A stretch of 64,000 nucleotides of DNA from an uncultured Chitinophaga sp. (GTDB lineage: Bacteria > Bacteroidota > Bacteroidia > Bacteroidales > GCA-2748055), in assembly GCA_964349045.1 (NCBI GenBank), contig CAYGFI010000001.1:17213-81212 (forward strand), in the 5' to 3' direction. The notes beneath the pieces were generated by a model. That model was not told the DNA's origin. It searched no databases and was given only the letters and a program-made list of their open reading frames with translations. This document shows positions 12,279 through 57,367 of this stretch, in pieces (within the stretch, counting starts at the first letter, position 1; each line of letters opens with the position of its first letter). Both the position numbers and the translations under genes were made by a program.

Positions 12279-13703
12279 TTATTGAAAGCAGACCCACAGC
12301 TCTTCAGCGAAAAGCCGGTGCCCCCGGTCGTCGGGATGGTTGATTGTATTGTGAAGCAGAGTCGTGTAGGGAATGCCCTCTTTTGCGAGGTGCTCCCAGC
12401 GTGCGGAAGCATCGGCCAGCGCTATGTTATGCTTGCCGGCAAACTCGCGTAGTGCAAGTACGTAAGGTCGCTTTTCCGTTTCGCGCATATCCTTAAAGCC
12501 CATCATCTGCGTCATCGTAAAGTGGGGTGTGATGAGGATCAGCTCTGCGCCAATATCCTGTACCCGTTTTAAAATTTCGGAATATACTTCCTTAACTATC
12601 GCGGGAGTCTGATTGGCGTCGTTAACAAACTCAAGTGTGACGAGGTCTGGTTTAGCGTCAGCAATACGCTGCCAGGTCACGCCCGTTTCCTGCCAGGGCT
12701 TGTCATGGTAAAGATACTTCTCAGGGTAAAGCCACTGTCGACTGTTCGAGCCACCGGCACTTATATTTTCCATGTCGATCTTAGCCAGTGGGAATCGTTC
12801 ACACAGCCCGGAGATGAATACATCAGGATAACGAAACTCCGGTTTGGATGCATTGCCGCCGGCGGTGACCGAATCTCCCCAACAAACTATTTTCACAGAG
12901 CCACCGGCCCTTAATTTCGTGAGTGTCTTCGGAATAAGGCCTTTAGTGCTACCTGTTACTGCCTGCGTAGCTGTTTCAAGGATCATGTAAATCTGGTCGG
13001 TCTTAACCTCAGTGTCGCAATAGTTGATAAAAATATGCGCTATTGCGATGCAACCTGTGTCCGCAAGGGGTGGAACCGGTGTACTGATATGAGATTCTCC
13101 GTTTTTTAATGACGCTTTTCCTTCTGCTGAAACCTGGATCGTATCCATCCTAAGCATTGAGTAGCGATAGCTGGCGAAAACCGTATCATTAGCAGTCACC
13201 CGACTCTTCGTCCCTAGTCCAACATGTCCCCAGGAGACATCCACAAGATAATCCGTACCCTCTTTCAACCGTTTACCTCCTTTTGTCTTCCGGATCTCAA
13301 GCGAACCTGGCACGAAAGACCTGTATGCGTTCACGTCCTGTGCCCCGCAGCCCTTTAGCCGTGTGCCTTTGGCCCAGCCTGCCGATTTATCAACAGAAAG
13401 CATCAAGGGTTCGTCCGTCACTGCGATGACGTGTGCAGGTGAGACAATCAGGGTGGCAGGTTGAGTAACTGTTACAGAAGCGCCACCAAGCTTACAGTTA
13501 CCAGGTGTAACAATCACATTACTACCTTTTGCTGTGATCCTGATGCCAGGGTTTGAATCTAAAAAAGTCGATTTTCCCGACACTGATGATTCTGATGCTA
13601 AAACTCCAATTTCTCCAAGAGCAGTTGCGCTAAAGAACGCTAATGTACCTATTTTCAAAGCCTCACGACGGGTGATATAAGATGTATTTTGCTTTTTATT
13701 CAT
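12279..13703 (-). CDS. SGNH/GDSL-type hydrolase (carbohydrate esterase candidate) with twin-arginine signal
   Basis: Tat-like N-terminus YITRREALKIGTLAFFSATALG. The C-terminal half has SGNH blocks VCWGDSVTAGG, FVNDAN and HPDDRGH. The gene is GC-rich relative to its neighbours (33/60 GC in line 12301-12360). Confidence 0.7.
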   Translation of the reverse strand: MNKKQNTSYITRREALKIGTLAFFSATALGEIGVLASESSVSGKSTFLDSNPGIRITAKGSNVIVTPGNCKLGGASVTVTQPATLIVSPAHVIAVTDEPLMLSVDKSAGWAKGTRLKGCGAQDVNAYRSFVPGSLEIRKTKGGKRLKEGTDYLVDVSWGHVGLGTKSRVTANDTVFASYRYSMLRMDTIQVSAEGKASLKNGESHISTPVPPLADTGCIAIAHIFINYCDTEVKTDQIYMILETATQAVTGSTKGLIPKTLTKLRAGGSVKIVCWGDSVTAGGNASKPEFRYPDVFISGLCERFPLAKIDMENISAGGSNSRQWLYPEKYLYHDKPWQETGVTWQRIADAKPDLVTLEFVNDANQTPAIVKEVYSEILKRVQDIGAELILITPHFTMTQMMGFKDMRETEKRPYVLALREFAGKHNIALADASARWEHLAKEGIPYTTLLHNTINHPDDRGHRLFAEELWVCFQ

Positions 13704-16867: not shown

Positions 16868-17305
16868 TTACATTATTTTCTGACTATTATATCCTCTTTT
16901 TTTCATTGCATCCGGATTCACAATAAGAGGAACTTTATTGTTCTTATAGAACTCAATAATGTTAACTGCTGCCAACCTGGACATTTCCTGTCTTGTCTCA
17001 ACCGTGGCAGAGCTGATATGGGGCAAAACGAATACATTTTCCATTTGTAACAGTATGTTGTCAGGTTTCATAGGCTCCGGATTGGTAACATCTAGCCCGG
17101 CTCCCCAGATTATTCCTTTTTTCAGTGCTTCAACCAGGTCGTGCTCATTGTGCACTGATCCACACGAAGTAATAATAAAAATGGATGAAGGTCTCGTTTT
17201 TTGAAATGCAGTCATATTAAAAACACCTTTAGTCTCCTCGTTTAGGGAACAATGCACAGATATTACATCGCTTTGTGCCAGGCAGTATTTAACAGGATTA
17301 AACAA
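16868..17305 (-). pseudogene. C-terminal fragment of a D-isomer-specific 2-hydroxyacid dehydrogenase (truncated, no NAD-binding N-terminal part)
   Basis: The 145-aa ORF has DVISVHCSLNEETKGVFN, GAGLDVTNPEP and LPHISSATVETR. These correspond to only the last third or so of this ~320-aa family. Upstream sequence is AT-rich with no in-frame continuation. Confidence 0.65.
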
Positions 17306-17594: not shown

Positions 17595-18347
17595 ATGAAA
17601 TTACCAAACATTAATCGTTGAGATTTTCTAGTGAAGGCATCCGTTGGAGCTGCCTGTCTGGCTGTGGTCAACCCAACCCAGCTTTTAGCAGCAAGTGGAA
17701 GCAGAAAATCAATTTCCAAAAGTTCCAATGCCATAGATTATAAGATTGCGTACGGATGCTGGGTGAATGATATGCGGCTCGAACCGCTACCATTGGAGGA
17801 CTGGCCTGCACCTCAGATGGATGATGAGACTGTGAGAAGTGTCATTAAAGCAATGGATTTACAAAGTAAATACCATTACAACTGCCTAGATGCATGGGGT
17901 TTATTAGCAACAACCGCCTGGCCGCTAAACTTAGGTGAAGGGATTGATAATGAGCGCTTCACCGAGGCTGACAAGAAAGCGATAATTGAGCTTAGCAAGC
18001 ACATAGACGGCTTCTACGATCAAGGCTGGCACGGCACTTATATTCCTTCGGATGAAAGGGCAGCATTTATTAAGGAGCTGCATTGCACCTACAGAACATC
18101 CGGTGGTCGGTGGGTCTACCCTGGCCTGAGGTGGGATCGGGAGTCATTCTTCCTTCCTCATATGCAGCATCAGGCAACAGCCATTAAGGAACAGTTCGCC
18201 CAAGGGGCCCGGGGAATTATGCACTATCAGGGTCCGGTGAACAATCCCGGTAATATTTCAGGTTCCCGGAAACCTTTGATGAGGCATTCTATGTCTCCGA
18301 CTAAGACGGGACATTCAGCAGGATCCGCTGGCCTGTTTGTGGGATAG
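17595..18347 (+). pseudogene. Disrupted gene for a Tat-exported protein of unknown function (in-frame TGA in the RR motif; probable frameshift near the 3' end)
   Basis: The frame from ATG 17595 reads MKLPNINR-TGA-DFLVKASVGAACLAVV. The TGA at 17619-17621 sits where the second Arg of an RRDFL twin-arginine motif is expected (one step from CGA). The 238-aa ORF ends in a low-quality tail. A protein-like reading (VIVENMVPGIKSNIGFPFECWQNDNLQDW) continues in another frame to about 18510. Confidence 0.55.
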
Positions 18348-18672: not shown

Positions 18673-21147
18673 ATGTCAAATCGAAGAGAATTTATAAAAC
18701 AGGCTGCGGCAGCAGGAATGCTTGCCAGTATCCCGGAAGTTTTATTATCATCTGACTTTAAATCATTCAGCAATAATTACGATGCTCTCAAATCGAAGGA
18801 TGACACGACCGGAAAATCCAACAACATAGCTCCCCGGAAAAATGTTGGGGCTGTAATTGGCAGAGATTATTCCGGACGCCCGGTACTTGTCGTTGATGGC
18901 AAACCGGTTGCTATGATTGCCGGGCGTTTTGAGAGAAGGTATGATTCGGAACCAACCACAGCATCTTTGGATGCTTTCAGAAATGCCGGTTTACCACTGG
19001 TATTTGTCCCTGCTAACCTTGGCTTTTTCAACTCCAGATACCAAATTGACAATAACCTTCATGGAATTCCCACAAAAAACGGGAGTGAATTCTGGTGCGG
19101 ACCCGGAGACTACGACAGATCGCTCGTGGACAAGGCTCTGTCCCTTCCCTGTAAAGCTTACCCTGATGCAAAGATCATTGTCTGGCTTCTGATAGGGGAA
19201 TATCCCGAATTCGGGATCATGCATCCCGATGAAAGGATCCGGAACGATAAAGGTGAATCACTGATCGTTTCCACTCATTTCCTGCGATTTGATTCCATTG
19301 CACCAAGGGAAGCAAAGGAACATTACGCGATATCTTTCTTTTCGGAGCGATACAGGCAGGAATGCAAGGAAATGATTGCTGAATTCATAAAGACTGTGGA
19401 GTCAAGTCCATATGGCAATAATGTAGTGGGTTACCTCATCGGCGGCGGTCAAGATGCGCAGTTTTATGCATGGTCTCCACCGGACTGGAGTTTGCAGGAT
19501 ACGCCTAACAACTGGGGGGATTATTCCCTGCCTGCCAAAAAAGCTTTTACAAAATGGTTAGAAAAGAAATATGGGAGTATTGCTGCTTTGAATACGTCAT
19601 GGATGAGTGAACTCATATCCTTCGAACAGGTAACACCGCCGCCAGCTTCAGATCTGGCAGGAGAACAACCGTTTCATGATCCTGTAAAGGATCGTAAAGC
19701 TTATGATTGGAAGAGATTTCTTGCAGAGGGAAGGGCAGAATTTCTCGGGTATTTTGCTGAATTCATTAAAAAGAGTGCAAGTACAAATGTCATGGTTGGT
19801 GTTTCGGGGGGTGATGGCGGACACCGTCGTGATAACACATCTATCTCACAACTCCTCCGTTCTCCCTATATTGACTTTTTCTTACATCAGGCTACCTACG
19901 GTGTCAGAATTCCACCTTCCGTTGGTGGAATAAATGCTCTTTTGGATTCTTACACCGCAAACGGCAAATTATTTTTAACTGATATGGACCACAGGTTCTG
20001 GACTGGTGCAAAAATCGGGGACTGGAAGGAGGGGGTGATTTCAATTTCTGCCAGTGCGATGGGACAGGCGTCTGATATGTCCATGCAACGGGATATGTGG
20101 AGACGCGAGTTCTCCCGGCTCTGGGTCTCAGGGAACAATGGTGCATGGTTCAGCAACATGGGGCCTTCAGCACAATATGATAACATTGAAATCCAGAATG
20201 AACTGAGGCTGATTAATGATTTCTCAAATAGCCTGGTGAAGAGCCGCTGTGATACATCCCTTTCAATACAAAACCCGGTAAATTCCTGCGAAGTCGTCTT
20301 TGTTTTCGACGAGGCATCAGTGGATTATGCCAGAAAAGACCTTGGAGAATTCCACCAGGCAGGAATGCACCGCCAGTGGGCTGAAACAGGTGCTTCAGGC
20401 GTTCCGATCCGTTTTTATTATGCACAGGATCTCCGGGATGGCATTATCCCCCAGGCAAAACTCTATGTCCTTCAAAACCTGCTTGATATAGATGAAACTA
20501 TGGCCCGCAGGATCAAAGAGCTTCGAAAATCAGGGGCAACGATAATTCTGTTGCAGGGAACAGGAATGGTTCAGCTGGCTGGGGGCCGGTATAAACTATT
20601 GGATGATGCCTTGGGCATCAGGCTTCGCCCTGTGAACACAGCTGCCGGAAAAAATGACACAGGTAAATCCGGAATAATTGATACAATTCATCCGCTTCTG
20701 ACCGGTGACAGATGGAATCCCCGGATAACATCTTTTTCGAGTGAGCAGCTGAAGGAAGTTGATGGCTTATCCCTGACAGTTCAGGACAAGAAAGCTTCTT
20801 TTCTGGGCAGATATGAAATCTCAAAACTGCCCGCAATAGTTACAAAGAATCAGAAAAAGGGGGGAAGTGTGATTTTCATCGGAGCCTACACGCTTTCAAG
20901 AGACATGATCAGTCGGCTGGCTTCTTACGCCGGTGCATGGAGAGTGGCACCTCCTGGTAATGTTATTGCAGCCGACAGTCAGATCATGATGATCCATCCG
21001 CTCAGGGATGGCATAATCGAATTGGTACCAAAAGTTCCTTCCGCCTTGAGGCAAATGCCCCCGGGCGACATCTTCTCACCCAAAGCGGACATTCACAAAC
21101 TGGATCTTAAAGCAGGCACAACATATATGTTTAACGCGATAAAATGA
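18673..21147 (+). CDS. Tat-exported GH42-like (beta-galactosidase-like TIM barrel plus middle and C-terminal domains) protein, copy A
   Basis: Tat motif SNRREFIKQAAAAGMLA. YPEFGIMHPDERIRNDKGE and LPAKKAFTKWLEKKYGSIAALNTSW resemble GH42 N-domain stretches. CEVVFVFDEASVDYA resembles the GH42 middle domain. It is full-length homologous to the 25672-28137 product. Confidence 0.6.
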   Translation: MSNRREFIKQAAAAGMLASIPEVLLSSDFKSFSNNYDALKSKDDTTGKSNNIAPRKNVGAVIGRDYSGRPVLVVDGKPVAMIAGRFERRYDSEPTTASLDAFRNAGLPLVFVPANLGFFNSRYQIDNNLHGIPTKNGSEFWCGPGDYDRSLVDKALSLPCKAYPDAKIIVWLLIGEYPEFGIMHPDERIRNDKGESLIVSTHFLRFDSIAPREAKEHYAISFFSERYRQECKEMIAEFIKTVESSPYGNNVVGYLIGGGQDAQFYAWSPPDWSLQDTPNNWGDYSLPAKKAFTKWLEKKYGSIAALNTSWMSELISFEQVTPPPASDLAGEQPFHDPVKDRKAYDWKRFLAEGRAEFLGYFAEFIKKSASTNVMVGVSGGDGGHRRDNTSISQLLRSPYIDFFLHQATYGVRIPPSVGGINALLDSYTANGKLFLTDMDHRFWTGAKIGDWKEGVISISASAMGQASDMSMQRDMWRREFSRLWVSGNNGAWFSNMGPSAQYDNIEIQNELRLINDFSNSLVKSRCDTSLSIQNPVNSCEVVFVFDEASVDYARKDLGEFHQAGMHRQWAETGASGVPIRFYYAQDLRDGIIPQAKLYVLQNLLDIDETMARRIKELRKSGATIILLQGTGMVQLAGGRYKLLDDALGIRLRPVNTAAGKNDTGKSGIIDTIHPLLTGDRWNPRITSFSSEQLKEVDGLSLTVQDKKASFLGRYEISKLPAIVTKNQKKGGSVIFIGAYTLSRDMISRLASYAGAWRVAPPGNVIAADSQIMMIHPLRDGIIELVPKVPSALRQMPPGDIFSPKADIHKLDLKAGTTYMFNAIK

Positions 21148-21153
21148 GGTCTT

Positions 21154-23313
21154 ATGAAGCAAAAGAAAATCAATCGCCGGAAGTTTATCAGGACAACCGG
21201 GATATTGGGTGGCATGGCTGCCTTTACCCATTTTAGTATTTACGGAAGAGAGTCCGTGAAAAGTACAGGTAAGGAATTTTTTATCCATGTATCGCCAAAT
21301 GGCCAGGATCGCTGGAAGGGTCGTCTGGCTGATCCGGACAGGAAGGGAGAGGAGGGTCCTGTTCTGAGCCTGGAGCGTGCCCGTGATCTGGCACACGCGG
21401 CCCGGCTGGCTGAACCTGACAGGCCGGTGACCGTATTGCTGCATCCGGGGGTTTATCGCCGGAGCGGACCAATTATTCTGGATGCCGCCGATAGCGGTAC
21501 AGCAGGGGCGCCTGTAACCTGGCGTGCTGCAAAGGATTCTGTTCCTGTTATCACAGGATTGAAGCCGCTGCCTTCATCCTGGGTTTCAAATGGCGACGGG
21601 TCATGGAAGATGTTAATGAAAGATGTTTCAGGTATTCCGGAAACTTTTCGTCAGCTTTTCTGCAATGGTCTGCGTCTTTCACGGACGCGCTGGCCGGCAG
21701 AGGGATATCATACGGTTTATAGTTTTGCCGGGGAAAGCGAACAGGAGAAAAAGCAAAGTTTTCGCTACCTGGAAGGAGATGTGAAACGCTGGTCTAATTT
21801 TGAGGATGTTGAATTTGTCATTTTTCACAGCTGGAGTGAATCACGTTTGTTCCCGAAAGAGCTGGACGAGAAAGAACGGCGGATAACATTTACCCAGCAG
21901 GCGGCTTATCCGTTCGATTTTCAAGGTTGGAATTCTTACTACCTGGAGAATGTCAGGGAGGCTCTGACCGGGCCGGGGCAATGGTATCATGACAGAAACG
22001 AGGGCGTTTTGTATATGCGTCCCCCTGCCGGGGTCTCTGATCCGAACAAGGCTGAATTTGCTGTACCGGTTGCTGATGCCCTGCTGGAACTTCGTGGTTC
22101 TGAAAGTGATCCTGTCCGTCATATTCAATTTGAGGGGATTCATTTCACCGGTACCCGCTGGCAGATGTCACCAACCGGCTATGCCAACGGAGGTGGCTCC
22201 ACAGGTCCTCATGTACGCCCTGCAGCAATTACTTTTGAGCATGCTGAAGATTGTATTTTGCATAAGTGTTTGCTGGAGGCATCAGCTGGTTATTTCGTTG
22301 AATTAAACCAATGTCTTCGTTGCCGGGTATTACGCACAACCATTCGTGAGGCTGGCAGCGGCGGAATTATTTTTTCCAATGGAGCAGACAACGAGGTGGC
22401 CGATTGTCACATTCACCATTGCGGCCGTCTTTATTTCGGCGGCACGGGGGTGGTCAATCCCACCGGTTTACGCACCCACATTCATCACAACCATATCCAT
22501 GATATGCCTTACTGTGGTATACGTGGCGGTGATTGGCGTATTGAGTTGAATGAAATCTTTGAATACAACCATATTCATCATGTAATGCTTGTTCTCGATG
22601 ATGGGGCAGGTATTTTTAATGCCGGCATTGGCAGTATCTTCCGCAACAATCTGGTTCATGACTGTGTCGGCGGGCGACACAAATTTGCACTGGGGCTTTA
22701 TCTGGATCATTACCGCACCGGTGTGCTGATGGAGAATAATGTGGTTTACAACACGGGCAGGGAATTATTGCATCTGCACGACAATTATGGAAACACTTTT
22801 GTAAATAATATTTTTGCCTTCGGTGGTGCGGCTCAGTTAAGCTGGACAAGATTTCACGGCACAACTTTTGGCCGGCGTAATGAGCCCTACCGTCATTCTT
22901 TGCAAACTTTTCAACGTAATATTGTTTACTGGCGTGAAGGCTGCCTGTCCCATAATATGGACTGTAACCGATGGGACCTGGCATCGCAACCGGAATTGAT
23001 TGATTATAACATTTACTGGAAGGATGGTAAAAAAGATCTTGAGGTGCCGGGGCTTGGCCGGATTCCGGCAAATGAAGTCCGGTTTGGCCGTGGACATGTT
23101 TCGCAGCCCGGTGTTGGTCATGACACCTTTGCCGACTGGCAGGGGTTGGGATTGGATCGTCATTCACTCAATCAGGATCCTTTGTTTGTGGATCCCGATA
23201 ATGGAGATTTCCGTCTGCGTGAGGATTCCCCGGCTTTCGCCCTTGGTATTAAGCCGATCGATTTGAGCGGGGTGGGTATCCGTGTGCCGGATGCATCTGA
23301 CAGGAAAGAATAA
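21154..23313 (+). CDS. Tat-exported right-handed beta-helix protein, tandem copy B
   Basis: Tat motif INRRKFIRTTGILGGMAAF. It has the same beta-helix motif set as 3214-5259 (CHIHHCG, HNHIHDMPYCGIRGGDW, YNHIHHVM, RNNLVHD, NNIFAFG, DPLFVDPDNGDFRL). GC-rich (39/60 in line 21301-21360). It starts 6 nt after the stop of copy A. Confidence 0.8.
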   Translation: MKQKKINRRKFIRTTGILGGMAAFTHFSIYGRESVKSTGKEFFIHVSPNGQDRWKGRLADPDRKGEEGPVLSLERARDLAHAARLAEPDRPVTVLLHPGVYRRSGPIILDAADSGTAGAPVTWRAAKDSVPVITGLKPLPSSWVSNGDGSWKMLMKDVSGIPETFRQLFCNGLRLSRTRWPAEGYHTVYSFAGESEQEKKQSFRYLEGDVKRWSNFEDVEFVIFHSWSESRLFPKELDEKERRITFTQQAAYPFDFQGWNSYYLENVREALTGPGQWYHDRNEGVLYMRPPAGVSDPNKAEFAVPVADALLELRGSESDPVRHIQFEGIHFTGTRWQMSPTGYANGGGSTGPHVRPAAITFEHAEDCILHKCLLEASAGYFVELNQCLRCRVLRTTIREAGSGGIIFSNGADNEVADCHIHHCGRLYFGGTGVVNPTGLRTHIHHNHIHDMPYCGIRGGDWRIELNEIFEYNHIHHVMLVLDDGAGIFNAGIGSIFRNNLVHDCVGGRHKFALGLYLDHYRTGVLMENNVVYNTGRELLHLHDNYGNTFVNNIFAFGGAAQLSWTRFHGTTFGRRNEPYRHSLQTFQRNIVYWREGCLSHNMDCNRWDLASQPELIDYNIYWKDGKKDLEVPGLGRIPANEVRFGRGHVSQPGVGHDTFADWQGLGLDRHSLNQDPLFVDPDNGDFRLREDSPAFALGIKPIDLSGVGIRVPDASDRKE

Positions 23314-23345
23314 ATACAATTCATGCTAATTAAAAAGCTAAACTT

Positions 23346-25484
23346 ATGAACCAAAAGAAATACAATCGCCGGAAGTTTATCAGGACCACCGGTATTTTTG
23401 GTGGCATGGCTGTTTTAACCAATTTTGGTATTTATGGAAGAGAATCCGTAACAAGTACCGGCAAGGAGTTTTTTATCCATGTATCGCCCCAGGGACAGGA
23501 TCGCTGGCAGGGTCGTTTGGCTACTCCGGACAGGCGGGGAGAGGAGGGGCCTGTTATGAGTCTGGAGCGTGCGCGTGATCTGGCGCGCCTGGCCCGGCAG
23601 GCTGAACCAGCAAGGGCTGTGACGGTTTTGCTGCATCCGGGGGTTTATCGCCGGAGCGAACCGCTTATTCTGGATGTCGCCGATAGTGGTACTGCAGGGG
23701 CGCCTGTAGCCTGGCGTGCTGCAAAGGATTCTGTTCCTGTTATCACAGGATTGAAGCCGCTGCCTTCATCCTGGGTTTCCAATGGCGACGGGTCATGGAA
23801 ACTCTTAATGAGTGATGTTTCAGGTTTTCCGGTAACTTTTCGTCAGCTTTTCTGCAATGGCCAGCGCCTCTCCCGGACTCGCTGGCCGGCGCAGGGATAT
23901 AAATCAGTATATAGTTTTGCCGGGGAGAGCGATCAGGAACGGAAGCAAAGTTTTCGATACATGGAAGGAGATGTGAAACGCTGGTCGAATTTTGAGGATG
24001 TTGAATTTGTTATTTTTCACAGCTGGAGTGAATCCCGTTTGTTTCCGAAAGAGCTGGACGAGAAAGAACGGCGGATAACTTTTACCCGTCAGGCGGCTTA
24101 TCCGTTCGATTTTACAGGATGGAATTCTTACTATGTTGAGAATGTCAGGGAAGCTCTGACTGATCCGGGACAGTGGTACCATGACAGAAGTGAAGGTGTT
24201 TTGTATATGCGTCCCCCTGCCGGGGTCTCTGATCCGAACAAGGCTGAATTTTCTGTAGCGGTTGCCGATGGTCTGCTGGAGCTTCGCGGTTCTGAAAGCA
24301 ATCATATCCATCATGTTCAGCTTGAAGGTATTCATTTCACCGGTACCCGCTGGCAGATGGGACCAACCGGTTATGCCAACGGGGGAGGTGCCGGAGGTCC
24401 TCACGTACGCCCTGCGGCAATTACTATTGAGAATGCTGAAGATTGCGTTCTGCATAATTGTTTACTGGAGGCAACAGCGGGTTATTCAGTGGAACTAAGC
24501 CAATGTGATCGTTGCGTGGTCTCTCGCACGACCATCCGTGAGGCCGGCAGTGGTGGTGTCATTCTTTTCGGAGGAGCAGACAACGAGGTGGCGGATTGTC
24601 ACATTCATCATTGCGGCTGTCTTTATTTCGGTGGCACGGGGGTGGTCAATCCCACCGGTTTACGCACCCACATTCATCACAACCATATCCATGATATGCC
24701 TTACTGTGGTATACGTGGCGGTGATTGGCGTATTGAGTTGAATGAAATCTTTGAATACAACCATATTCATCATGTAATGCTTGTTCTCGATGATGGGGCA
24801 GGTATTTTTAATGCCGGCATTGGCAGTATCATCCGCAATAATCTGGTTCATGACTGTGCAGGCGGGCGACACAAATTTGCATTTGGGCTATATCTGGATG
24901 AGTACCGCACCGGTGTGCTGCTTGAAAACAATGTGGTTTACAACGCCGGAAGTGAATTATTACTTTTACATGACAATTACGGGAACACGATTGTCAATAA
25001 TATCTTTGCCTTTGGCGGTAATGCGCAGTTGAGCTGGACTGTATTTCACGGTACTACTTTTGGCAGGCGCATGATGACATATCGCCATCCGCTGCAAACA
25101 TTTCAGCGTAATATCGTTTACTGGCATAAAGGCTGCCTGTCCCACAATCTTGATTGTAACAGGTTGGATCTGGCCTCAAAACCGGAATTGATTGATTATA
25201 ACATTTACTGGAAGGATGGTAAAGAAGATCTTGAAGTACCGGGACTTGGCCGGATTCCGGCAAATGAAGTCCGGTTTGGCCGTGGACATGTTTCGCAGCC
25301 CGGTGTTGGTCATGACACCTTTGCCGACTGGCAGGGGTTGGGATTGGATCGTCATTCACTCAATCAGGATCCAATGTTTGTGGATCCCGATAATGGAGAT
25401 TTCCGTCTGCGTGAGAATTCTCCGGCTTTTGCCCTTGGAATTAAGCCAATCGATGTGAGCGGGGTAGGGCCGCGTAAGATATAG
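23346..25484 (+). CDS. Tat-exported right-handed beta-helix protein, tandem copy B'
   Basis: Tat motif YNRRKFIRTTGIFGGMAVL. Colinear with 21154-23313 at an offset of exactly 2192 nt, and contains stretches of 198 and 128 identical nucleotides. Confidence 0.8.
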   Translation: MNQKKYNRRKFIRTTGIFGGMAVLTNFGIYGRESVTSTGKEFFIHVSPQGQDRWQGRLATPDRRGEEGPVMSLERARDLARLARQAEPARAVTVLLHPGVYRRSEPLILDVADSGTAGAPVAWRAAKDSVPVITGLKPLPSSWVSNGDGSWKLLMSDVSGFPVTFRQLFCNGQRLSRTRWPAQGYKSVYSFAGESDQERKQSFRYMEGDVKRWSNFEDVEFVIFHSWSESRLFPKELDEKERRITFTRQAAYPFDFTGWNSYYVENVREALTDPGQWYHDRSEGVLYMRPPAGVSDPNKAEFSVAVADGLLELRGSESNHIHHVQLEGIHFTGTRWQMGPTGYANGGGAGGPHVRPAAITIENAEDCVLHNCLLEATAGYSVELSQCDRCVVSRTTIREAGSGGVILFGGADNEVADCHIHHCGCLYFGGTGVVNPTGLRTHIHHNHIHDMPYCGIRGGDWRIELNEIFEYNHIHHVMLVLDDGAGIFNAGIGSIIRNNLVHDCAGGRHKFAFGLYLDEYRTGVLLENNVVYNAGSELLLLHDNYGNTIVNNIFAFGGNAQLSWTVFHGTTFGRRMMTYRHPLQTFQRNIVYWHKGCLSHNLDCNRLDLASKPELIDYNIYWKDGKEDLEVPGLGRIPANEVRFGRGHVSQPGVGHDTFADWQGLGLDRHSLNQDPMFVDPDNGDFRLRENSPAFALGIKPIDVSGVGPRKI

Positions 25485-25671
25485 ACTTTGCTACCAATAT
25501 TTTGTCCCTACGGATTTAAATATCGGTAGAATTAAAAAGCAACTCCTATTCAGTAAAGTTCCGTAGGAACGTAATAAATAAAGCAATTCTGGTAAAATCT
25601 TTAATTTTTTTATGGACACCAGTGATACTAATAATAAAACTAAACATCCCTTTAAAATAAATTTTGTTGTG

Positions 25672-28137
25672 ATGAAACAAAAAAATCTCGATCGACGGAT
25701 GTTTATTAAGACCACCGGTATCTATGGCAGCATGGCTATTCTGGCAAATACCGGTATTTCCGGATACTTTGCTGGTTGTAGTAATGAAACACCTACGCAC
25801 GTGAAACCCATCTGGGAGGATCCACCCATAGAAGAGGTTCCTCCGTTGACCGAAGAATTGCTGCAACGCATCAGGAATCAACCTGTTCCGGCAGCTGAAT
25901 TGGTTCAACACTCTAATGGTGCCACTCAGTTGTCAATCAATGGTAATGTAAAACCATTTTTGTTTGGAACGGAGGTTTACTGGACCCCCCGGGAAAATTT
26001 ACAGATTGGTGTGTGGAAGCAAGCTGGTATTGAAATACTTATTATTCCTATGAACCTTGGATTTGCACGTGAACGGCAGGGTAGCAATGTTAACGCCATC
26101 AAGTATCAGAAATCTTTTTGGGATGGAGCAGGTAAATATACTCATCACGAAGAAATTGAAGAAGTTCTCTGGCGCGTTCTTCGTGTGTATCCTGATGCCA
26201 AATTGCTGCTTTGGACCTTTATTCAGGCCTATCCTGAATGGGACCAGGAAAATCCTGATGAAATAATGCGAAATGATAAAGGTGTTCCATTTATTGTAAC
26301 CAGTTATTTCCAGCGTGTAGGAAATGATCCTGATTATTCAAAAGGAGAAACCCGTGCATGGTCATTTTTTTCAGAAAAATTTCGTGCTGATGTCAATGCC
26401 ATGCTCACGGAATTTATAACAACTGTAGAAAATAGCATTCCTGGCCGGTCGGTAATCGGGTATATGCTGGGTGGAGGTGTGGATGCACAATTTTATTTTT
26501 GGCAACCACCTAACCCTATTCGCCAGAAGGATCCTGATTTATGGGGTGATTTCAGCCTTCCTGCCATCAGGGCATGGCGCCGCTGGCTTAAGAAGAAATA
26601 TGTCACGATTGACAAACTGCGTACAAACTGGAACATACCCGTTGTATCGTTTGATAAGGCAGAACCACCCGGAGCAGCTGATTTGATTGGCAGTGATATT
26701 TTTCATGATCCGGGTAAGGAGCAACGCGCCATCGATTGGAAACGATTTATTGCTGAAGGGCGGGTGGATCTGATATGTGATCTGGCACGAACTGTTCGTA
26801 AAGCTTCTACCAGAAAAATTATTGTCGGGTCCTCAGGCGGTGAAAGTGCAAGTCGCAGTGATCTCACTGCAAATGCCTTACTTATCCAGTCACCTGAAAT
26901 TGACTTTCTTTTCCACCAGGCCGGTTATGGTGACCGTTTGCCTCCTTCTGCAGGCGGGATTAATGCGGTCCTTCATTCCCATCAGCTCCATGGTAAACAA
27001 TTTATCAGCGATAACGATCACCGGACCTGGCTTGTCAAGCCCACAGAAGGAGCCACTAAAATTGGCACAGGGGTTTCTTTTACTGATAACACTGTTGGCC
27101 GGGCTTCCGACATTGACCAGTACCGTGCCATGCTGCGTCGTGAACTTGGACGGATCTGGACAGCAGGTCTTGGTGCTCACTTCTTTAATCATTCTGCTCC
27201 CTGGACCTACAACGATGATAAGCTTATTGGAGAACTGACCCAACTCCGGAAGACCGCGGAAACCCTTCTGCCGCCCTCTCCATGGCATCCTGCTGCAGAA
27301 GTAGCTGTTATATACGATGAATGTTCCATTGATTATCTGAAAGGAGGTCTTCAAAATCTTCACAGTGTCTGGGCCAGGCAGCAGCGCACTGAACTGGATT
27401 CCTCCGGTGTTCCTTATTCCAGATATTATACAGCTGATTTACGTGCCGGAAAAATCCCGGAAGCCAGGCTTTACATTTTTGTAAACCAGTTAAACCTCGA
27501 TAATGAACTAATTACCCAGATCAATCGTCTTAAAAAGGAACAGGCTACCCTGGTATTTCTGCAAAGCACCGGTTTTGCCCAGGTAAAAAGTAATTTTTCT
27601 GAAATTACCGATACCCTGGGAATGCAGGTTCTTCACCACATAGAGGCAAGGAAGAAGTCTTCAACAATACCGGTAACTGCTACTCATCCTTTAAGAGCTT
27701 CAGCAGATTCCAACCATCAATCCCTGGATTTGGAATCACAATCTGCACTGGTAATTACGGATCCTGATGCAGAGATTCTTGCGTATTATCCGGAGACCGA
27801 ACTTGCCGGATTTGGTATTAAAAAACACGAAGACTGGTCGGCTGTATTTGTTGGCACACACTTATTGAATCGTCAGACCATTCATGCACTGGCAGAGTTT
27901 ACAGGTGCTTACCGTCTTTCTTCGTCAGGTTACGGCGTGGCTGCTGATGATAACCTATTGATGATTCATCCCCTGCAATCTGGTTCTGTTACCGTCATCA
28001 TGCCTCACCCTGCTGCTTTACGGGAAGTACCTCCTGGTTCGATTAATACGGATTTTTCTTCTCAACATAAGCTCAGGCTTAAGGCAGGGACAACCTATCT
28101 TTTCAGGCTGGAGAAGAAAGGCGGGCAAACTTCCTGA
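25672..28137 (+). CDS. Tat-exported GH42-like protein, copy A'
   Basis: ORF 25612-28137. The ATG at 25672 gives MKQKNLDRRMFIKTTGIYGSMAILA (Tat motif). Colinear with 18673-21147 (YPEWDQENPDEIMRNDKG, LPAIRAWRRWLKKKYVTIDKLRTNW, AEVAVIYDECSIDYL). Confidence 0.6.
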   Translation: MKQKNLDRRMFIKTTGIYGSMAILANTGISGYFAGCSNETPTHVKPIWEDPPIEEVPPLTEELLQRIRNQPVPAAELVQHSNGATQLSINGNVKPFLFGTEVYWTPRENLQIGVWKQAGIEILIIPMNLGFARERQGSNVNAIKYQKSFWDGAGKYTHHEEIEEVLWRVLRVYPDAKLLLWTFIQAYPEWDQENPDEIMRNDKGVPFIVTSYFQRVGNDPDYSKGETRAWSFFSEKFRADVNAMLTEFITTVENSIPGRSVIGYMLGGGVDAQFYFWQPPNPIRQKDPDLWGDFSLPAIRAWRRWLKKKYVTIDKLRTNWNIPVVSFDKAEPPGAADLIGSDIFHDPGKEQRAIDWKRFIAEGRVDLICDLARTVRKASTRKIIVGSSGGESASRSDLTANALLIQSPEIDFLFHQAGYGDRLPPSAGGINAVLHSHQLHGKQFISDNDHRTWLVKPTEGATKIGTGVSFTDNTVGRASDIDQYRAMLRRELGRIWTAGLGAHFFNHSAPWTYNDDKLIGELTQLRKTAETLLPPSPWHPAAEVAVIYDECSIDYLKGGLQNLHSVWARQQRTELDSSGVPYSRYYTADLRAGKIPEARLYIFVNQLNLDNELITQINRLKKEQATLVFLQSTGFAQVKSNFSEITDTLGMQVLHHIEARKKSSTIPVTATHPLRASADSNHQSLDLESQSALVITDPDAEILAYYPETELAGFGIKKHEDWSAVFVGTHLLNRQTIHALAEFTGAYRLSSSGYGVAADDNLLMIHPLQSGSVTVIMPHPAALREVPPGSINTDFSSQHKLRLKAGTTYLFRLEKKGGQTS

Positions 28138-28200
28138 GAAGCAAAACATGCCAGCGGGCTATTCATTTTCCATAATGATTTCCACTGATATGGTGTTGAT

Positions 28201-30174
28201 TCAGTTGGATGCCCGGTATAATCCAACAACTTCGGTGGTCATCAGAAACCGGTCATAAATTCTAAGATTTGTCATCTGCTTATTTGCCAGTTGCCAAGTT
28301 GAAGCGCCGTTTGCATCGCCAAAATCATGACTGAACCAGACTGTACCACGTTCCTTTGTTTTCCCGCCGTCCTGAAATTCCCCATTGATGACTATACTGA
28401 CCAGTTTGGGGTAGCCGTCAACGATAATGGAAATATCATGAGTTTTGGAAGGGTTGAGAATATTTTCGTTACTGGTCAGGGTGACTGTTTCTTTTCCATC
28501 GCTCATCGTGAACACCAGGGTATGATCCGCTGTAAGCTCTGCTTTCACTCCTTTTTTGTTGTGGAATGCATCGATGAGAACGATGGTCCCTGTTGTTTTC
28601 CCTTTGGCGGCTTCTGGTTGAGGTAACAGACGAAAACAGATTGAAAATCCTCCATTTTCACCTGGTGAAGGCAGAATGGGTGCAGGAATTTTTGATTTGG
28701 GTTTTGCAAGATGTATTAGCAGACCGGTTTCCGGAACGCCGGAGATTTTGAACTGCTGGCTCAGGAGGTCAAAAAATGGTTCGGGGACAGGAAACGTCTT
28801 TACGTATTCCTTATCACTGATACGTCCGATAATACCATCGGGTCCTGCACCAAATTCGGGAGTGTTCAGTCTTTCATGGGAATGATTATCGTAGCCGAGT
28901 TGATCTTTCCGGTAATGAACCAATTCCGGTTCAGAAAAGTAGAACTGATTGTTCCGCGTTTCCATATAAGCAATATAAACGAGATCACGGCCGGAGAAAT
29001 CATCAAATCCCTGAACACTATTATTATAGTAAACGAAAAATTTACGACCCTTGGGGTCGGAGGGGAATCCGTATGGTCCCTGGGGGCTTTTAACAGGCCT
29101 GCCGTCAGGGGAATAGCGCAATATGTCTGTTTTCCAGGTCTGTCCCTGGTCATTGCTTCGTGCCAGTCCGATGAATCCATAAACTGTCCGGTGGTGAAAA
29201 CACCAGTGGTCATCTTCCATGATTAGCGGAGAAAAACCACCGGCAGATGAATATTCAAGGTGGGTAATACCACGTTTATCATTTGGAAGCAATTCAATTT
29301 CGAGGGTTTCTAGGCGATCATTGTTTGCGTAATTTTTAAAAAGCAGAAAAAATGCTTCGCCGTTGCCGCAACGAGGGATAGGCCCGTGTTTGGTAATCCA
29401 CGTAAGCCCGTCGTCGCCCATCATTCGGTGCGGTATGGGATAACTCCAGCTTACGAAGTATTTTCCTTTAAAAAGTGTTGAACGATCAATATCGGCTACG
29501 GGTACTGGCAGCTCATATCGTTCGGAGAATTCTCCTTCCTTACTGACATATCTGAACATCACTTTACCTACCAGATGCGGGTAACAGCGGAACGGTTCCC
29601 CTTCATGCCAGCCAAGGAATGTGGCTATATCAAGAAAATCAGTAGGCTCTTTGCTGTAGTGCATATCCTCGTCAGGTCCCCGGAAGTACATAAAATAAAC
29701 CTGGTCGGTAGTAGGATGACGGAAGAACGACCCATAGGTGGTGAGTGGAGGGCCTTCCGGTTCAAGTTCGAACCAGTCACTCCAGGTTTGGCCTCCGTCA
29801 GTTGAACGTCTGATGATAATATGCTGGCTGGGATGGCCTTCGCGACTTCTGGCCACTGTCAGGGTTCGTAAATGCACTTTGTCAGTAACTTTGTAAGTCG
29901 AAAATCCTTCCATATAACCGTATCCTTCCGGTAGGGTTCCTCCGGTCAAGCCCACAACTGGGTCACCATTTTCAAAAGCCCGCCAGTCGTCCATGCCAAA
30001 CGAAGGAGGAAACACATATGGATTCCGGGGTATCTCCTCATCTGAAATATTTTTAAGGGCGCTGTCAGATGTTACATTTAACCAACCTGCTGAATTGCGG
30101 GAAGGATCATTAAAATTTCCTGCCGATAAAGCAACTCCTGAAATGAGCAAAAGGGATAGGATATTTGTATTCAT
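28201..30174 (-). CDS. BNR/Asp-box beta-propeller plus C-terminal LamG-like domain protein (sialidase/trans-sialidase-like architecture)
   Basis: Start taken at the ATG giving MNTNILSLLLISGVALSA, because the upstream GTG lies inside the IS terminal repeat. Asp-boxes are STDGGQTWS and SNDQGQTWK. The C-terminal ...LVSIVINGEFQDGG...LRIYDRFLMTTEVVGLYRA is a LamG_3-like ending. Paralog of 61028-62899. Confidence 0.7.
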   Translation of the reverse strand: MNTNILSLLLISGVALSAGNFNDPSRNSAGWLNVTSDSALKNISDEEIPRNPYVFPPSFGMDDWRAFENGDPVVGLTGGTLPEGYGYMEGFSTYKVTDKVHLRTLTVARSREGHPSQHIIIRRSTDGGQTWSDWFELEPEGPPLTTYGSFFRHPTTDQVYFMYFRGPDEDMHYSKEPTDFLDIATFLGWHEGEPFRCYPHLVGKVMFRYVSKEGEFSERYELPVPVADIDRSTLFKGKYFVSWSYPIPHRMMGDDGLTWITKHGPIPRCGNGEAFFLLFKNYANNDRLETLEIELLPNDKRGITHLEYSSAGGFSPLIMEDDHWCFHHRTVYGFIGLARSNDQGQTWKTDILRYSPDGRPVKSPQGPYGFPSDPKGRKFFVYYNNSVQGFDDFSGRDLVYIAYMETRNNQFYFSEPELVHYRKDQLGYDNHSHERLNTPEFGAGPDGIIGRISDKEYVKTFPVPEPFFDLLSQQFKISGVPETGLLIHLAKPKSKIPAPILPSPGENGGFSICFRLLPQPEAAKGKTTGTIVLIDAFHNKKGVKAELTADHTLVFTMSDGKETVTLTSNENILNPSKTHDISIIVDGYPKLVSIVINGEFQDGGKTKERGTVWFSHDFGDANGASTWQLANKQMTNLRIYDRFLMTTEVVGLYRASN

Positions 30175-30176
30175 AA

Positions 30177-31493
30177 TCACTAGTGTCCGATTAAATCCAG
30201 CTGATTTTCAGCTGTTTATTATATAGTTCTTTGACGTCTTTGTAATTCTGATTTGTAAGTAATTCATTTATAGGCGTTTTGTCAAGTAGAGATATGCTTA
30301 ATATTTGTAATATTTCGTAGGTTGAGCGGTCAACTTTCAATTTGTTACGAACTAATGCAACCAGACAGTATGCAATTATTGCAGAGTAAACCTGTATTTT
30401 GACTGCATTCAGACTCGTTCCCCAAAATGATTTAATTTTTAAATGCTGTTTTATCCATTTGAAAAATAGTTCAACTTTCCATCGGTATTTATAAAGTTGT
30501 GCTATTTCTTCTGATGCTAAACCAAAGTTGTTGGATAAAAAATCAAGTTCGTTATTCGTTTCTTCGTCGTAAAATTTAACCCGACGAAGCTTTTGCGGAT
30601 ACTTTTTGGAGACATAAAATCCAGTCAATGTTCCGATTTGGTCGAGCAAAACGCCATTCTTCTTATTTACTTTATTTGAATATACTCTTTGGAACTGAAG
30701 ATTACCTTTCGCTCTTATTACGAAGAAGGCCGAGCATTGATTTATTTTAAAAAGTCTTGCATAATCAACATATCCACGATCGAAAATGTAATAACTTCCT
30801 GGTTCATAATACAATAAATCCATAGCATTCATGTCATTCATTGATGCTGCAGAAACATGAATAAAATTAGGAATGGAAGTCTTTACATCATACAAGGTAT
30901 GCAACTTGATTCCTCCCTTAGTTTTACGGAATTCAGCCCACCAGAAAATATTCAAACAAAGATCAATGGTTGTTGAATAAAATGCATAAATATTACCATT
31001 TATATTCAACTGAAAGTCTTGATCAACTATTGAGGATTGTCTTGCTTGATCGATGAGATAGTATGCAAAATCTTCAAAAATTCTACAGTCTCTTTTCTCA
31101 TTTGAGTTTGCAAAGTTTGATCTTGAGGTTCCCTTACCAAATCCAAGGTGATAATACTTGGGTTCATGAGGCTCAATACTAATCATTAGATCTCGTAAGC
31201 TATCTCTACCGGTCAGTTGGCCAAATATCATACAGAGCAATTGGTTCCAGCAGGAAAAGTGTCTAACATGCTTATTACCATTGTATTTATCAACCAACCC
31301 ATCGAAAATACGTTTTGGAAGAAAATCTGTAAGTTGTGAACAGACAAATTTACCTTTATTCATGGGTTCCAGCTTTTCACAAAGCTAAAAACCAACTTTT
31401 CAATTCAAATCGACACGCAACAAAAATGCTCTACATGTCAGAAATATCAAAGGTTTCAAAGAACGTTATATAAATTTAATCGGACACTTGTGA
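30177..31493 (-). mobile_element. IS4-family insertion sequence, about 1.3 kb, with 20-bp terminal inverted repeats
   Basis: Left end 30177-30196 is tcactagtgtccgattaaat. The reverse complement of 31474-31493 is tcacaagtgtccgattaaat (19/20 match). A single transposase ORF lies inside. I could not find a direct target-site duplication in the flanks (..ttcataa versus ctcaact..). Confidence 0.8.
30191..31363 (-). CDS. IS4-family DDE transposase (DUF4372-type N-terminus)
   Basis: 390 aa. The N-terminal CSQLTDFLPKRIFDGLVDKYNGNKHVRHFSCWNQLLCMIFGQLTGRDSLRDL is typical of DUF4372-containing IS4 transposases of Bacteroidota. The central FDRGYVDY and C-terminal YKYRWKVELFFKWIKQHLKIKSFWG are DDE_Tnp_1-like. 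Confidence 0.88.
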   Translation of the reverse strand: MNKGKFVCSQLTDFLPKRIFDGLVDKYNGNKHVRHFSCWNQLLCMIFGQLTGRDSLRDLMISIEPHEPKYYHLGFGKGTSRSNFANSNEKRDCRIFEDFAYYLIDQARQSSIVDQDFQLNINGNIYAFYSTTIDLCLNIFWWAEFRKTKGGIKLHTLYDVKTSIPNFIHVSAASMNDMNAMDLLYYEPGSYYIFDRGYVDYARLFKINQCSAFFVIRAKGNLQFQRVYSNKVNKKNGVLLDQIGTLTGFYVSKKYPQKLRRVKFYDEETNNELDFLSNNFGLASEEIAQLYKYRWKVELFFKWIKQHLKIKSFWGTSLNAVKIQVYSAIIAYCLVALVRNKLKVDRSTYEILQILSISLLDKTPINELLTNQNYKDVKELYNKQLKISWI

Positions 31494-55672: not shown

Positions 55673-57367
55673 CTATTTCGAGCCAGACCTGAAATTCCCA
55701 ATAACTTCAGATGTTCGCAATGCACGGTCATAAATCCTGAATGTTTTAATATCACCGTCAAATCCGGGAGCCAGTGTTGTCTTTGTTCTGCCTTTCACAT
55801 TCAGCAGGTATGAATTATATCTCCCCCATCCATATTGCCTGTAGTCGCCTCCATCCAGAAATTTACCATTAACAATGAATGAGATTGTTTTCGGACCTCC
55901 GTCAATAACTATTGCAACATGCTGGAGTTCCCCGGCTTTCAGCACCGGGTCGGACGACCAGCTGTTTTCGGTTCTTCCATCATTTAAGCTTAGTTTCAGG
56001 CTGTTATTCTCATTTACAGTAATTCCCATTCCTATACCACCTGGCAAATAATTCTCCAGGATCACCTGGTCCTGTTTAAATGAATTAAATTGAATCCAGA
56101 ATTCAAATGTGATGCCGGTTCTGTAATCTAAATTATTTCCCCCGTTTATAAATTGTTTAAAATCCGGAAGTTCAATCTCCTTTTTGGCTTTTATTTCATC
56201 CGATTTCAATTCCAATTGCAAACCTTTTGTTGTAAGAGATTTATTTGACAATTGATTCCAGCAACCTTCCAGCAGGGATGCGTCCAATTGGTGCACCCTG
56301 GCGAGTGTTTTCTGGGTTTCAAAAAGGTAGTACTGACCATCGTCTTCAAGAAATCCCGGGTAACTCAAACGTCCGGAATGATAAGTAAGATCATCAGAGT
56401 AAAGCAGTATTTCCGGTTCTGACCAGACTATTCTTCCATCTTTTTCAACCCCTCCGCTTATCCATGCAGGATTTCTTTCACTGTAGTTTTTCCCATTATG
56501 ATTGTGAAAAAAAAGCAAATAATTACCATTGGTACATTTCCATAGGCTGGGACATGCCAGGGGGTGCTTTATTTTACGATCAGTGCTGCTGTATTGGAGA
56601 GCAACCGGTTTAGTCCATGTCTTTCCCTGGTCGTGACTGACCGAATTTCCTATATAACCCTGGTCTGTCCGGAAAACACAGTATAATGAACCATCACTCA
56701 TGGTAACAATATGAGGCTCTTCCGAGCGGCTTTCCGGTTTATCCCATTCAGGTCCTCTTAAACCTTTTCCGTTTTCCGGGAGCAGATTCCATTTTATTTT
56801 TTGAGGGTCGGATTCTGTGTATATATTTTTACTCTCAAGAAAATATACTTCTGTTTTTCTTGGAGGACTATTTAACGCAATCATAGCCCAGGGATAGATC
56901 AGTTCCTTGTTTATCAGCACGGGCATGCCAACTCCCCAACCACCGAATTCCGTAAACTGGGGTATTTTAACGGGATCTGACCATGTCTGGCAACCATTAT
57001 CTGACCAGGTAAATGCGCCCGGGGTAAGTGAATATATCCTGCCATCCTGAGCTTCAAAAGGTATAGCATATGCCCTGTTACATTCTGTAAAGGGTGACCA
57101 GGTTTTTCCCAGGTCTTTACTTAAGGTAACAGCCGAAAAATTTCTGGATCCTTTTTCAACTTCACCAAGTGTTCCCACGGTTAACGCGCATATCCATGTG
57201 CCATCCTTTGATTTTATAACATAAGGTTGATCAGCATATTTCATGCCCGGAGTTGGAATGATTGTTCCCTCTTCAATGTTTCTCCAGTCGTTAGTTTCCT
57301 GTGCTGAAGAATTTAAAATGCCAACCGAAAATATCAGAAGGCAACAAAAGAAAAGTTGTTTTTTCAT
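55673..57367 (-). CDS. BNR/Asp-box beta-propeller plus LamG-like domain protein
   Basis: Signal MKKQLFFCCLLIFSVGILNSSAQ. Asp-boxes are SKDLGKTWS, SDNGCQTWS and SHDQGKTWT. The C-terminal ISFIVNGKFLDGG...IKTFRIYDRALRTSEVIGNF is LamG_3-like. Confidence 0.7.
   Translation of the reverse strand: MKKQLFFCCLLIFSVGILNSSAQETNDWRNIEEGTIIPTPGMKYADQPYVIKSKDGTWICALTVGTLGEVEKGSRNFSAVTLSKDLGKTWSPFTECNRAYAIPFEAQDGRIYSLTPGAFTWSDNGCQTWSDPVKIPQFTEFGGWGVGMPVLINKELIYPWAMIALNSPPRKTEVYFLESKNIYTESDPQKIKWNLLPENGKGLRGPEWDKPESRSEEPHIVTMSDGSLYCVFRTDQGYIGNSVSHDQGKTWTKPVALQYSSTDRKIKHPLACPSLWKCTNGNYLLFFHNHNGKNYSERNPAWISGGVEKDGRIVWSEPEILLYSDDLTYHSGRLSYPGFLEDDGQYYLFETQKTLARVHQLDASLLEGCWNQLSNKSLTTKGLQLELKSDEIKAKKEIELPDFKQFINGGNNLDYRTGITFEFWIQFNSFKQDQVILENYLPGGIGMGITVNENNSLKLSLNDGRTENSWSSDPVLKAGELQHVAIVIDGGPKTISFIVNGKFLDGGDYRQYGWGRYNSYLLNVKGRTKTTLAPGFDGDIKTFRIYDRALRTSEVIGNFRSGSK

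Follow-up and report, generated by a model that had tools for sequence, protein, structure and literature searches.

A cluster of GH141-family and GH42-fold genes with twin-arginine-type signals in an uncultured Bacteroidales genome

The four genes at the locus

The locus described here lies in a 64,000-nt stretch of DNA from an uncultured Chitinophaga sp., placed in the order Bacteroidales in the GTDB lineage (assembly GCA_964349045.1, contig CAYGFI010000001.1, positions 17,213 to 81,212). We call this whole stretch the window and number it from its first letter. At 18673-28137 it carries four genes, named A, B, B' and A', whose products all begin with signals of the twin-arginine translocation (Tat) type. 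The cluster is a set of glycan-degradation genes that joins a known glycoside hydrolase (GH) family, GH141, with an uncharacterised branch of the GH42 fold, and it is not fundamentally new. The genes are as follows.

18673-21147, plus strand: gene A, 824 aa, GH42 fold, uncharacterised branch, Tat-type N-terminus MSNRREFIKQAAAAGMLASIPE
21154-23313, plus strand: gene B, 719-aa right-handed beta-helix glycosidase of the GH141 family (by homology), Tat-type signal, candidate catalytic pair D483/D518
23346-25484, plus strand: gene B', 712 aa, tandem duplicate of B
25672-28137, plus strand: gene A', 821 aa from the second Met, second GH42-fold paralog

A preliminary description had reported four consecutive plus-strand genes separated by spacers of 6, 32, and 187 nt, and the open reading frames (ORFs) are indeed found there: the spacers are 6 nt between A and B, 32 nt between B and B', and 187 nt between B' and A', the last counted from the Met at 25672. 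An alternative start at 25612 would lengthen A' to 841 aa. A and A' are 38% identical over 726 aa. B and B' are much closer, with 87% identity in protein and 86.9% in DNA; the likeness noted earlier is real, although "near-identical" was slightly generous. The RR-x-F-I-[KR] N-termini are likewise present on all four proteins, in the form N/S/D-RR-x-F-I-[KR] followed by a hydrophobic stretch. Promoter and terminator scans of the locus performed no better than shuffles.

Fold families and candidate catalytic residues

B and B' belong to the GH141 family. With B alone as the phmmer query, the Protein Data Bank (PDB) entry 9RX2 was matched at E 9e-56 and BT1002, the founding GH141 fucosidase, at E 7.6e-19; a profile of 39 B homologues matched the same two at E 4e-140 and E 2.1e-86, the latter over chain residues 26-601. 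Pfam reports Beta_helix and, near threshold, the GH141 insertion domain PF21231, which scores 24.9 bits in B (just below the 27-bit cut-off), 27.3 in B', and 40.7 in P0005, a further paralog in the window at 3214-5259. The AlphaFold model of B has a pLDDT (predicted local distance difference test) of 87.5; its first 38 residues (1-38) are disordered, in keeping with a signal peptide. In a Foldseek search of the PDB with this model, BT1002 (5MQP) was by far the best match (E 7e-30, TM score 0.62/0.74), followed by GH120 at E 4e-15, with lyases at about 1e-4 or weaker. A polysaccharide-lyase identity for B was considered and rejected, the PL6 and PL9 folds reaching only E ~1e-4 against 1e-30 for GH141. 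What had been offered as a guess, that the beta-helix proteins are GH141-like, is thus borne out by Pfam, phmmer, profile, and Foldseek evidence alike; the accompanying remark that they could not be placed by eye in a characterised CAZy family no longer applies, since GH141 has characterised members.

In BT1002, an alpha-L-fucosidase of B. thetaiotaomicron, residues D523 and D564 are reported as essential (PMC12786026); they correspond to chain positions 528 and 569, with a spacing of 41 in both numberings. Read from the sequence alignment, this Asp pair falls on D483 of B, conserved in 39/39 homologues, and D518, conserved in 33/39, and these are the likely catalytic pair of B and B'. BT1002 has the same right-handed beta-helix with the GH141 insertion domain. 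It differs in its overall sequence (20-22% identity in the structural alignment), in having a Sec signal where B and B' have Tat-type signals, and in lacking a C-terminal extension of ~150 residues that B and B' share with 9RX2. The latter, deposited as "Parallel beta-helix repeat protein" (717 aa), is the nearest solved full-length relative of B, with which it shares the C-terminal DP(L/M)FVDPxNGDF region; it is ~30% identical to B and has NIHHVG where B has HIHHCG. We found no paper naming the entry 9RX2.

Another comparison within the family is offered by Wf141_1/2/4, endo-alpha-1,4-L-fucanases of Wenyingzhuangia fucanilytica (PMC12786026), which keep similar company, with sulfatases and GH29. 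The fucanase branch is marked by the signatures xHQxWxxxD and xRxDx (PMC12786026). B has HSW and YLD at those sites, where only a shared Asp-Gly fits, and therefore lies outside this branch by signature. A fucose specificity of B is a contextual assignment.

The preliminary description had singled out a His/Cys-rich motif set, and we confirmed its presence: HIHHCG, HNHIHDMPYCGIRGGDW, and YNHIHHVM occur in B and B', and the paralog at 3214-5259, there called AT-type, has the same motifs with small changes (HIHHCG, HN(H/L)IHDMPYCG, and (Y/F)NHIHHVM). The proposal that they form a metal or active-site signature did not hold. The underlying unit, NxIH[DH], recurs at 418-422, 446-450, 472-476, and 499-503, a period of ~26-28 residues or one unit per coil of the beta-helix; it is kept in homologues of 30-35% identity and, in part, in 9RX2 and BT1002. 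Among the 39 homologues the Cys positions are variable (C423 in 24/39, C454 in 15/39, C418 in 9/39). The per-coil repetition, the conservation in distant homologues, and the variable Cys together rule out a clade-specific metal site in B, and the alignments mark the NxIH set as a family-wide structural or cleft ladder.

A and A' are more distant from anything characterised. Pfam assigns them to the GH42 family PF02449 with 35 and 26 bits (cut-off 21), yet only profile positions 145-233 of 376 are covered, and searches of PDB sequences with A returned the same partial segment only. For comparison, a canonical GH42 encoded elsewhere in the same genome (contig C91) matches positions 2-376 with 390 bits. 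The structural evidence is broader. The model of A (pLDDT 82, pTM 0.86) has GH42 enzymes as its top 32 Foldseek matches, at E 2e-24 to 4e-20 over ~810-850 aligned columns; its match to GH42 beta-galactosidases spans all three domains with 11-14% identity and a TM score of 0.58/0.70, and GH35 and GH164 enzymes of the same architecture rank after GH42. The predicted domains are a TIM barrel, an alpha/beta domain of the trimerisation type, and a beta-sandwich. Finally, hhalign of the A family against the canonical GH42 of the same genome gave probabilities of 97-98.6%. The earlier label "GH42-like" is thus upheld by the partial Pfam match, Foldseek, and hhalign, and A and A' are placed by these models and profiles in a large uncharacterised branch related to GH42, not among canonical GH42 enzymes.

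The GH42 beta-galactosidases BiBga42A (8IBR) and Thermus A4 (1KWG) share with A and A' the three domains, the TIM barrel, and the DYS...W...F helix region after strand 4. They differ at the active site, where they have an Asn-Glu acid/base. This element, in the sequence D-N-E, has no counterpart in A by hhalign, which sets it against a non-conserved QDT (275-277). Directly after strand 4, the family has instead G258-G259-x-D261-x-Q263 (numbering of A), and ~26 additional residues separate this loop from the shared DYS helix. In a comparison of 44 members with 20-38% identity, D261 is conserved in 41/44 and both R412 and D439 in 44/44; Q263, D283, D401, Y409, and K432 are further conserved polar residues. 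Position 437, after the strand at 433-437, is Glu in 32/44 and Asp in 12/44, with Asp in A and its subclade; hhalign confidence is low there. A and A' are probably glycosidases with an altered catalytic apparatus, and their positions after strands 4 and 7 make D261 and E/D437, with D439, the likely catalytic residues. A second difference is one of location: GH42 enzymes are typically cytoplasmic, and A and A' are predicted to be exported.

The branch is large. An exhaustive profile search found at least 1,154 cluster representatives at E<=1e-30 and 4,076 at 1e-3, counted as clusters at 50% identity. Eight sampled members have at most a weak partial Pfam match to GH42, and two of them none at all. 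The branch is widespread in lake bacteria of the Planctomycetota-Verrucomicrobiota-Chlamydiota (PVC) group and is routinely auto-named "beta-galactosidase" though it lacks the GH42 acid/base motif.

Tat-type signals

The Tat profile TIGR01409 (cut-off 16.7 bits) scores 17.0 for A, 19.2 for B, 16.2 for B', and 12.4 for A', and the genome encodes TatC (230 bits, contig C138). By this profile the earlier reading of the N-termini as twin-arginine signals is favoured for A and B, marginal for B', and weak for A'. A strict Tat-pattern scan of the 5.4-Mb genome returned 16 ORFs, four of which are A, B, B', and A', so that RR motifs on all four exceed chance. Several of the other 12 may be oxidoreductases, judging from a Rossmann-type glycine motif after the signal. 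The N-terminus of A is conserved in the homologues P0126 and P0131 and in that of metagenome contig L038 (55-79% identical overall), which favours the upstream start of A over the Met16 start chosen by gene callers. In A', the signal region (25672-25785) has the RR motif followed by a lipobox-like FAGC, and A' may be a Tat-exported lipoprotein.

More distant members of the A family have Sec-type signals. The closest homologues of B outside Bacteroidota (66-68% identity, on contigs of 61-62% GC) have no signal, with in-frame stops 1 and 13 codons upstream of their starts. The Tat signals are confined to the nearest Bacteroidota homologues and so look like lineage-specific additions, which suggests that their gain relocated the enzymes to the periplasm.

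Tat export had been thought unusual for glycosidases without cofactors, and this point did not survive. Cofactor-less hydrolases are exported by Tat in Streptomyces, an example being the agarase DagA. Those enzymes likewise degrade glycans, lack a redox cofactor, and carry twin-arginine signals; they differ in belonging to another phylum and other enzyme families, and in the present case lineages that otherwise lack the signal seem to have gained it. A recent Tat review and a preprint on Planctomycetota carbohydrate-active enzymes (CAZymes) gave no usable figures on Tat-exported glycosidases.

History and possible function of the block

The host genome (5.4 Mb in 388 contigs) has 39.5% GC. The block at 18673-28137 has 47.2%, against 39.6 +/- 3.0% for 2-kb windows of the genome, only 0.8% of which reach that value. 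A-type genes are absent from 40/40 sampled genomes of the genus, family, and order, and Tat-type B is absent from the sampled relatives, which have only beta-helix genes of the P0005 type. Named genomes with A-family genes are almost all metagenome-assembled genomes (MAGs) of lake PVC bacteria, from Pontiellaceae (Kiritimatiellota), Lentisphaerota, Verrucomicrobiota, and Planctomycetota, with one Porphyromonadaceae MAG. In a maximum-likelihood tree, A (with the homologue from locus L005) and the L038/L018/L041 group fall among PVC sequences as two distinct clades. A' is a member of another subfamily and clusters with a second paralog of Verrucomicrobiota, whose gene is found 1.5-8 kb away from an A-type gene in the same genomes. 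Composition, distribution, and the IS4 element and gene debris at the borders mark the block as probably acquired horizontally; it is also strain-variable and accessory. Its relatives are mostly PVC bacteria, and we infer the donor phylum from the tree and composition. A search for an empty site in genomes of the same genus found no orthologue of the GH20 neighbour and, for the T9SS (type IX secretion system) gene of 1535 aa discussed below, a single one, which sits at a contig end in genome G002.

The borders of the block and the other features referred to in the text are as follows.

3214-5259, plus strand: P0005, GH141-family paralog, vertically inherited, 47-49% identical to B, with an ordinary Sec signal and orthologues in two related genomes
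16900-17276, minus strand: remnant of a 2-hydroxyacid dehydrogenase gene at the left border, 88.9% nt identity to L038 4101-4477 (3' part of the gene, which is intact there)
17595-18347, plus strand: decayed gene at the left border, with a Tat-like N-terminus MKLPNINR*DFLVKASVGAACLAV and an in-frame TGA at the second Arg position
28201-30180, minus strand: 659-aa protein within the 25500-31492 segment, with a Sec signal, Asp-box (SxDxGxTW) motifs, and a weak C-terminal LamG-like match
30191-31363, minus strand: transposase (DUF4372 and DDE_Tnp_1) of an IS4-family insertion sequence, single-copy in the assembly, at the right border of the GC-rich block

The decayed gene at 17595-18347 looks like the relic of a fifth Tat substrate; its remaining ORF, read from a GTG start, has no Pfam match. 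The window has also lost a sugar-acid module, since in L038 the dehydrogenase adjoins an enzyme of the galactonate-dehydratase family and an RraA-like aldolase.

Independent metagenome contigs show that the locus is real and variable. In L038-L040, a flank of rhamnosidase-like, esterase, and GH29 genes is 83-89% identical in nucleotides to the window; next come the intact dehydrogenase, the sugar-acid dehydratase, the RraA-like aldolase, and a 769-aa GH141 of the Sec type, and then a homologue of A (56%), a 6-nt spacer, and a homologue of B (88.7% over the 97 residues present). Contigs L044 and L045 are 96% identical to the window over the 3' end of B, the 32-nt spacer, and B'. After B' they continue for ~220 nt directly into a T9SS gene of 1535 aa, and the segment corresponding to 25500-31492 of the window, with A', the BNR/LamG gene at 28201-30180, and the IS4 element, is missing; this junction identifies the segment as an indel. 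These ~220 nt include, where the window has A', a 157-nt fragment (L044 2796-2952, L045 2351-2507) that resembles the 3' end of gene A at 84.7% identity, which suggests that an A-type copy once lay downstream of B' and has since been deleted in the strain represented by these contigs. Between B and B', DNA identity changes along the genes in a mosaic of 78-99%; over the catalytic core (residues ~425-495, with the NxIH ladder and D483) the two are identical for 198 nt, likely a tract of gene conversion. The mirror-like order A-B-B'-A' would thus go back to a tandem duplication of B, with gene conversion afterwards, and to a second event that inserted A' together with the BNR/LamG gene and IS4; with such an origin the order is historical, not functional.

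The cluster is surrounded by genes for a GH29 fucosidase, a GH20 hexosaminidase, a rhamnosidase-like six-hairpin enzyme, a GDSL esterase, and an SSF symporter, and further by four S1 sulfatases and many BNR/sialidase-like and LamG proteins; sulfatase, GH29, GH20, rhamnosidase-like, BNR, and SASA genes accompany the cluster and its homologous loci alike. Several proteins of the window carry T9SS C-terminal sorting domains, which places the genome in the Bacteroidota. Counted over the whole genome, the B-type beta-helix family has 17 matches, including a short C-terminal fragment, but the A type has two genes only, A and A'. Two T9SS cargo proteins of ~1,540 aa are among the 17 GH141-like matches.

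Taken together, we consider it probable that the cluster is an accessory, horizontally acquired, strain-variable block of Tat-tagged glycosidases in a T9SS-bearing degrader of sulfated glycans that contain fucose and hexosamine. B and B' would act as GH141 glycoside hydrolases through D483 and D518, and A and A' would hydrolyse with Asp261 after strand 4 and Glu/Asp437 and Asp439 after strand 7. All four would be exported folded to the periplasm by Tat, both the Tat dependence and the location being predictions, and would there trim imported oligosaccharides together with the GH29, GH20, and rhamnosidase-like enzymes, the esterase, and the sulfatases. The Tat signals would have been added in the Bacteroidota lineage, to proteins whose more distant relatives stay in the cytoplasm (B type) or are exported by Sec (A type), and would have moved the enzymes into the compartment where Bacteroidota process glycans. 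Judging from the genomic context, fucose-containing sulfated glycans are the leading guess for the substrate.

Several points weigh against this interpretation. Neither the GH141 subfamily of B nor the GH42-like branch has an enzymatically characterised member, and B lacks the published Wf141 signatures (HQxW...D and RxD). The acid/base Glu of GH42 cannot be aligned in A, whose loop 259-265 is modelled at low confidence. The second Tat profile, PF10518, stays below its gathering score of 22.7 for all four proteins (14-17 bits or no match), A' also fails TIGR01409, and no clear AxA cleavage site was seen in the four N-termini. The donor assignment, too, is drawn from a sparse tree and composition.

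Some of these points would suit other explanations. If A and A' were not glycoside hydrolases and used the GH42 fold as a binding or structural scaffold, or for other chemistry, the replacement of Asn-Glu by GGxDxQ, the Asp at the nucleophile position in the subclade of A, and the partial Pfam match (145-233 of 376) would all be natural; we think this unlikely, as the acidic residues after strands 4 and 7 are conserved at 20-38% identity (D261 in 41/44, E/D437 and D439 in 44/44 each) and the family lies consistently within CAZyme- and sulfatase-rich loci. At the opposite end is the idea that the branch is a distinct GH family with rebuilt catalysis (D261 in GGxDxQ and E/D-x-D on strand 7), directed at sulfated or otherwise decorated glycans, that in this Bacteroidota lineage needs export in folded form by Tat and acts alongside a Tat-relocated, formerly cytoplasmic GH141; we hold this to be possible, if doubtful. 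The RR motifs could also be n-regions of ordinary Sec or lipoprotein signals, with the proteins exported unfolded by Sec. The PF10518 scores, the 12.4 bits and lipobox-like FAGC of A', and the lack of an obvious AxA site speak for such a reading, and yet A and B pass TIGR01409, B' falls short by 0.5 bit, all four fit [STN]-R-R-x-F-[LI]-[KR], a pattern found in just 16 ORFs of the genome, and the motif is kept across homologues of 55-79% identity, which makes Sec export improbable in our view. Even less credible is an origin of the GC-rich block in mis-assembly or wrong binning of the MAG. The abrupt GC shift and the assembly of 388 contigs speak for such an artefact, but host-type genes flank the block on either side within its contig, and its junctions recur in independent metagenome contigs (from the GH29 side through A to B in L038-L040, and from B' to the 1535-aa T9SS gene in L044/L045), so that we regard an artefact as very improbable.

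The relation between A and B deserves separate weighing. The pairing of the two families had been taken to suggest a two-enzyme unit, and an obligate pair or complex, co-translated and co-exported, would account for the 6 nt between the A stop and the B start, for the same junction in L038-L040 next to an A of 56% identity from a different tree clade, and for the Tat signals on all partners. Adjacency recurs in that one other Bacteroidota lineage only: tblastn over all fetched loci for co-occurrence of the two families found L038-L040 and nothing else, and 0 of ~20 GH42-like loci from PVC and other bacteria have a B-like gene within 10 kb. An A homologue of 79% identity (L005) lies between BNR and GH20 genes, with sulfatases and no beta-helix gene, the closest non-Bacteroidota homologues of B (L001 and L042) have no GH42-like neighbour, and Verrucomicrobiota repeat a pair of A-type and A'-type genes instead. 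A general two-enzyme unit is therefore not borne out, and we rate an obligate one as rather unlikely, while the 6-nt junction in two Bacteroidota loci with very different A alleles hints at co-transcription and perhaps cooperation.

Pairing of A-family paralogs with each other is more widespread than their pairing with GH141. Verrucomicrobiota MAGs (L022 9662-17153, L023, and L033) have an A-type and an A'-type gene within 1.5-8 kb, and L007 (GCA_965085625.1) has two A-type copies with a sulfatase between them. B-type genes accompany a sugar-acid dehydratase and an RraA-like aldolase in both L001 and L038, an association more widely shared than that of A with B. It implies that the released sugar may enter an aldonate route, which would be compatible with fucose or galactose and is specific to neither.

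Although GH141 is taken to mark the breakdown of fucoidan and complex pectins, activities are known for only a few of the family's many branches, and none is assigned to the branch that B shares with 9RX2, an unpublished structure. Of the leads from this locus, the large GH42-like branch with its non-canonical catalytic motif is the most useful: if its activity were measured, many annotations would be put right and a new family might be established. On the reading preferred here, the locus also shows how a periplasm-centred degrader can adopt foreign enzymes: proteins with relatives that fold in the cytoplasm have gained a Tat signal.

Three further observations concern the surroundings of the block. 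Congeners have genomes of 3.8-4.2 Mb, so that the 5.4-Mb host carries >1 Mb of extra DNA. The GDSL/DUF4815 esterase gene at 12279-13703, outside the block and conserved in L038, has 48.8% GC (48.6% at third codon positions), well over the genome mean. The protein at 28201-30180 has two clear Asp-boxes (STDGGQTW and SNDQGQTW) and a weak LamG_3 match, with no Pfam match to BNR, and resembles the BNR and LamG proteins encoded at 55673-57367 and 61028-62899.

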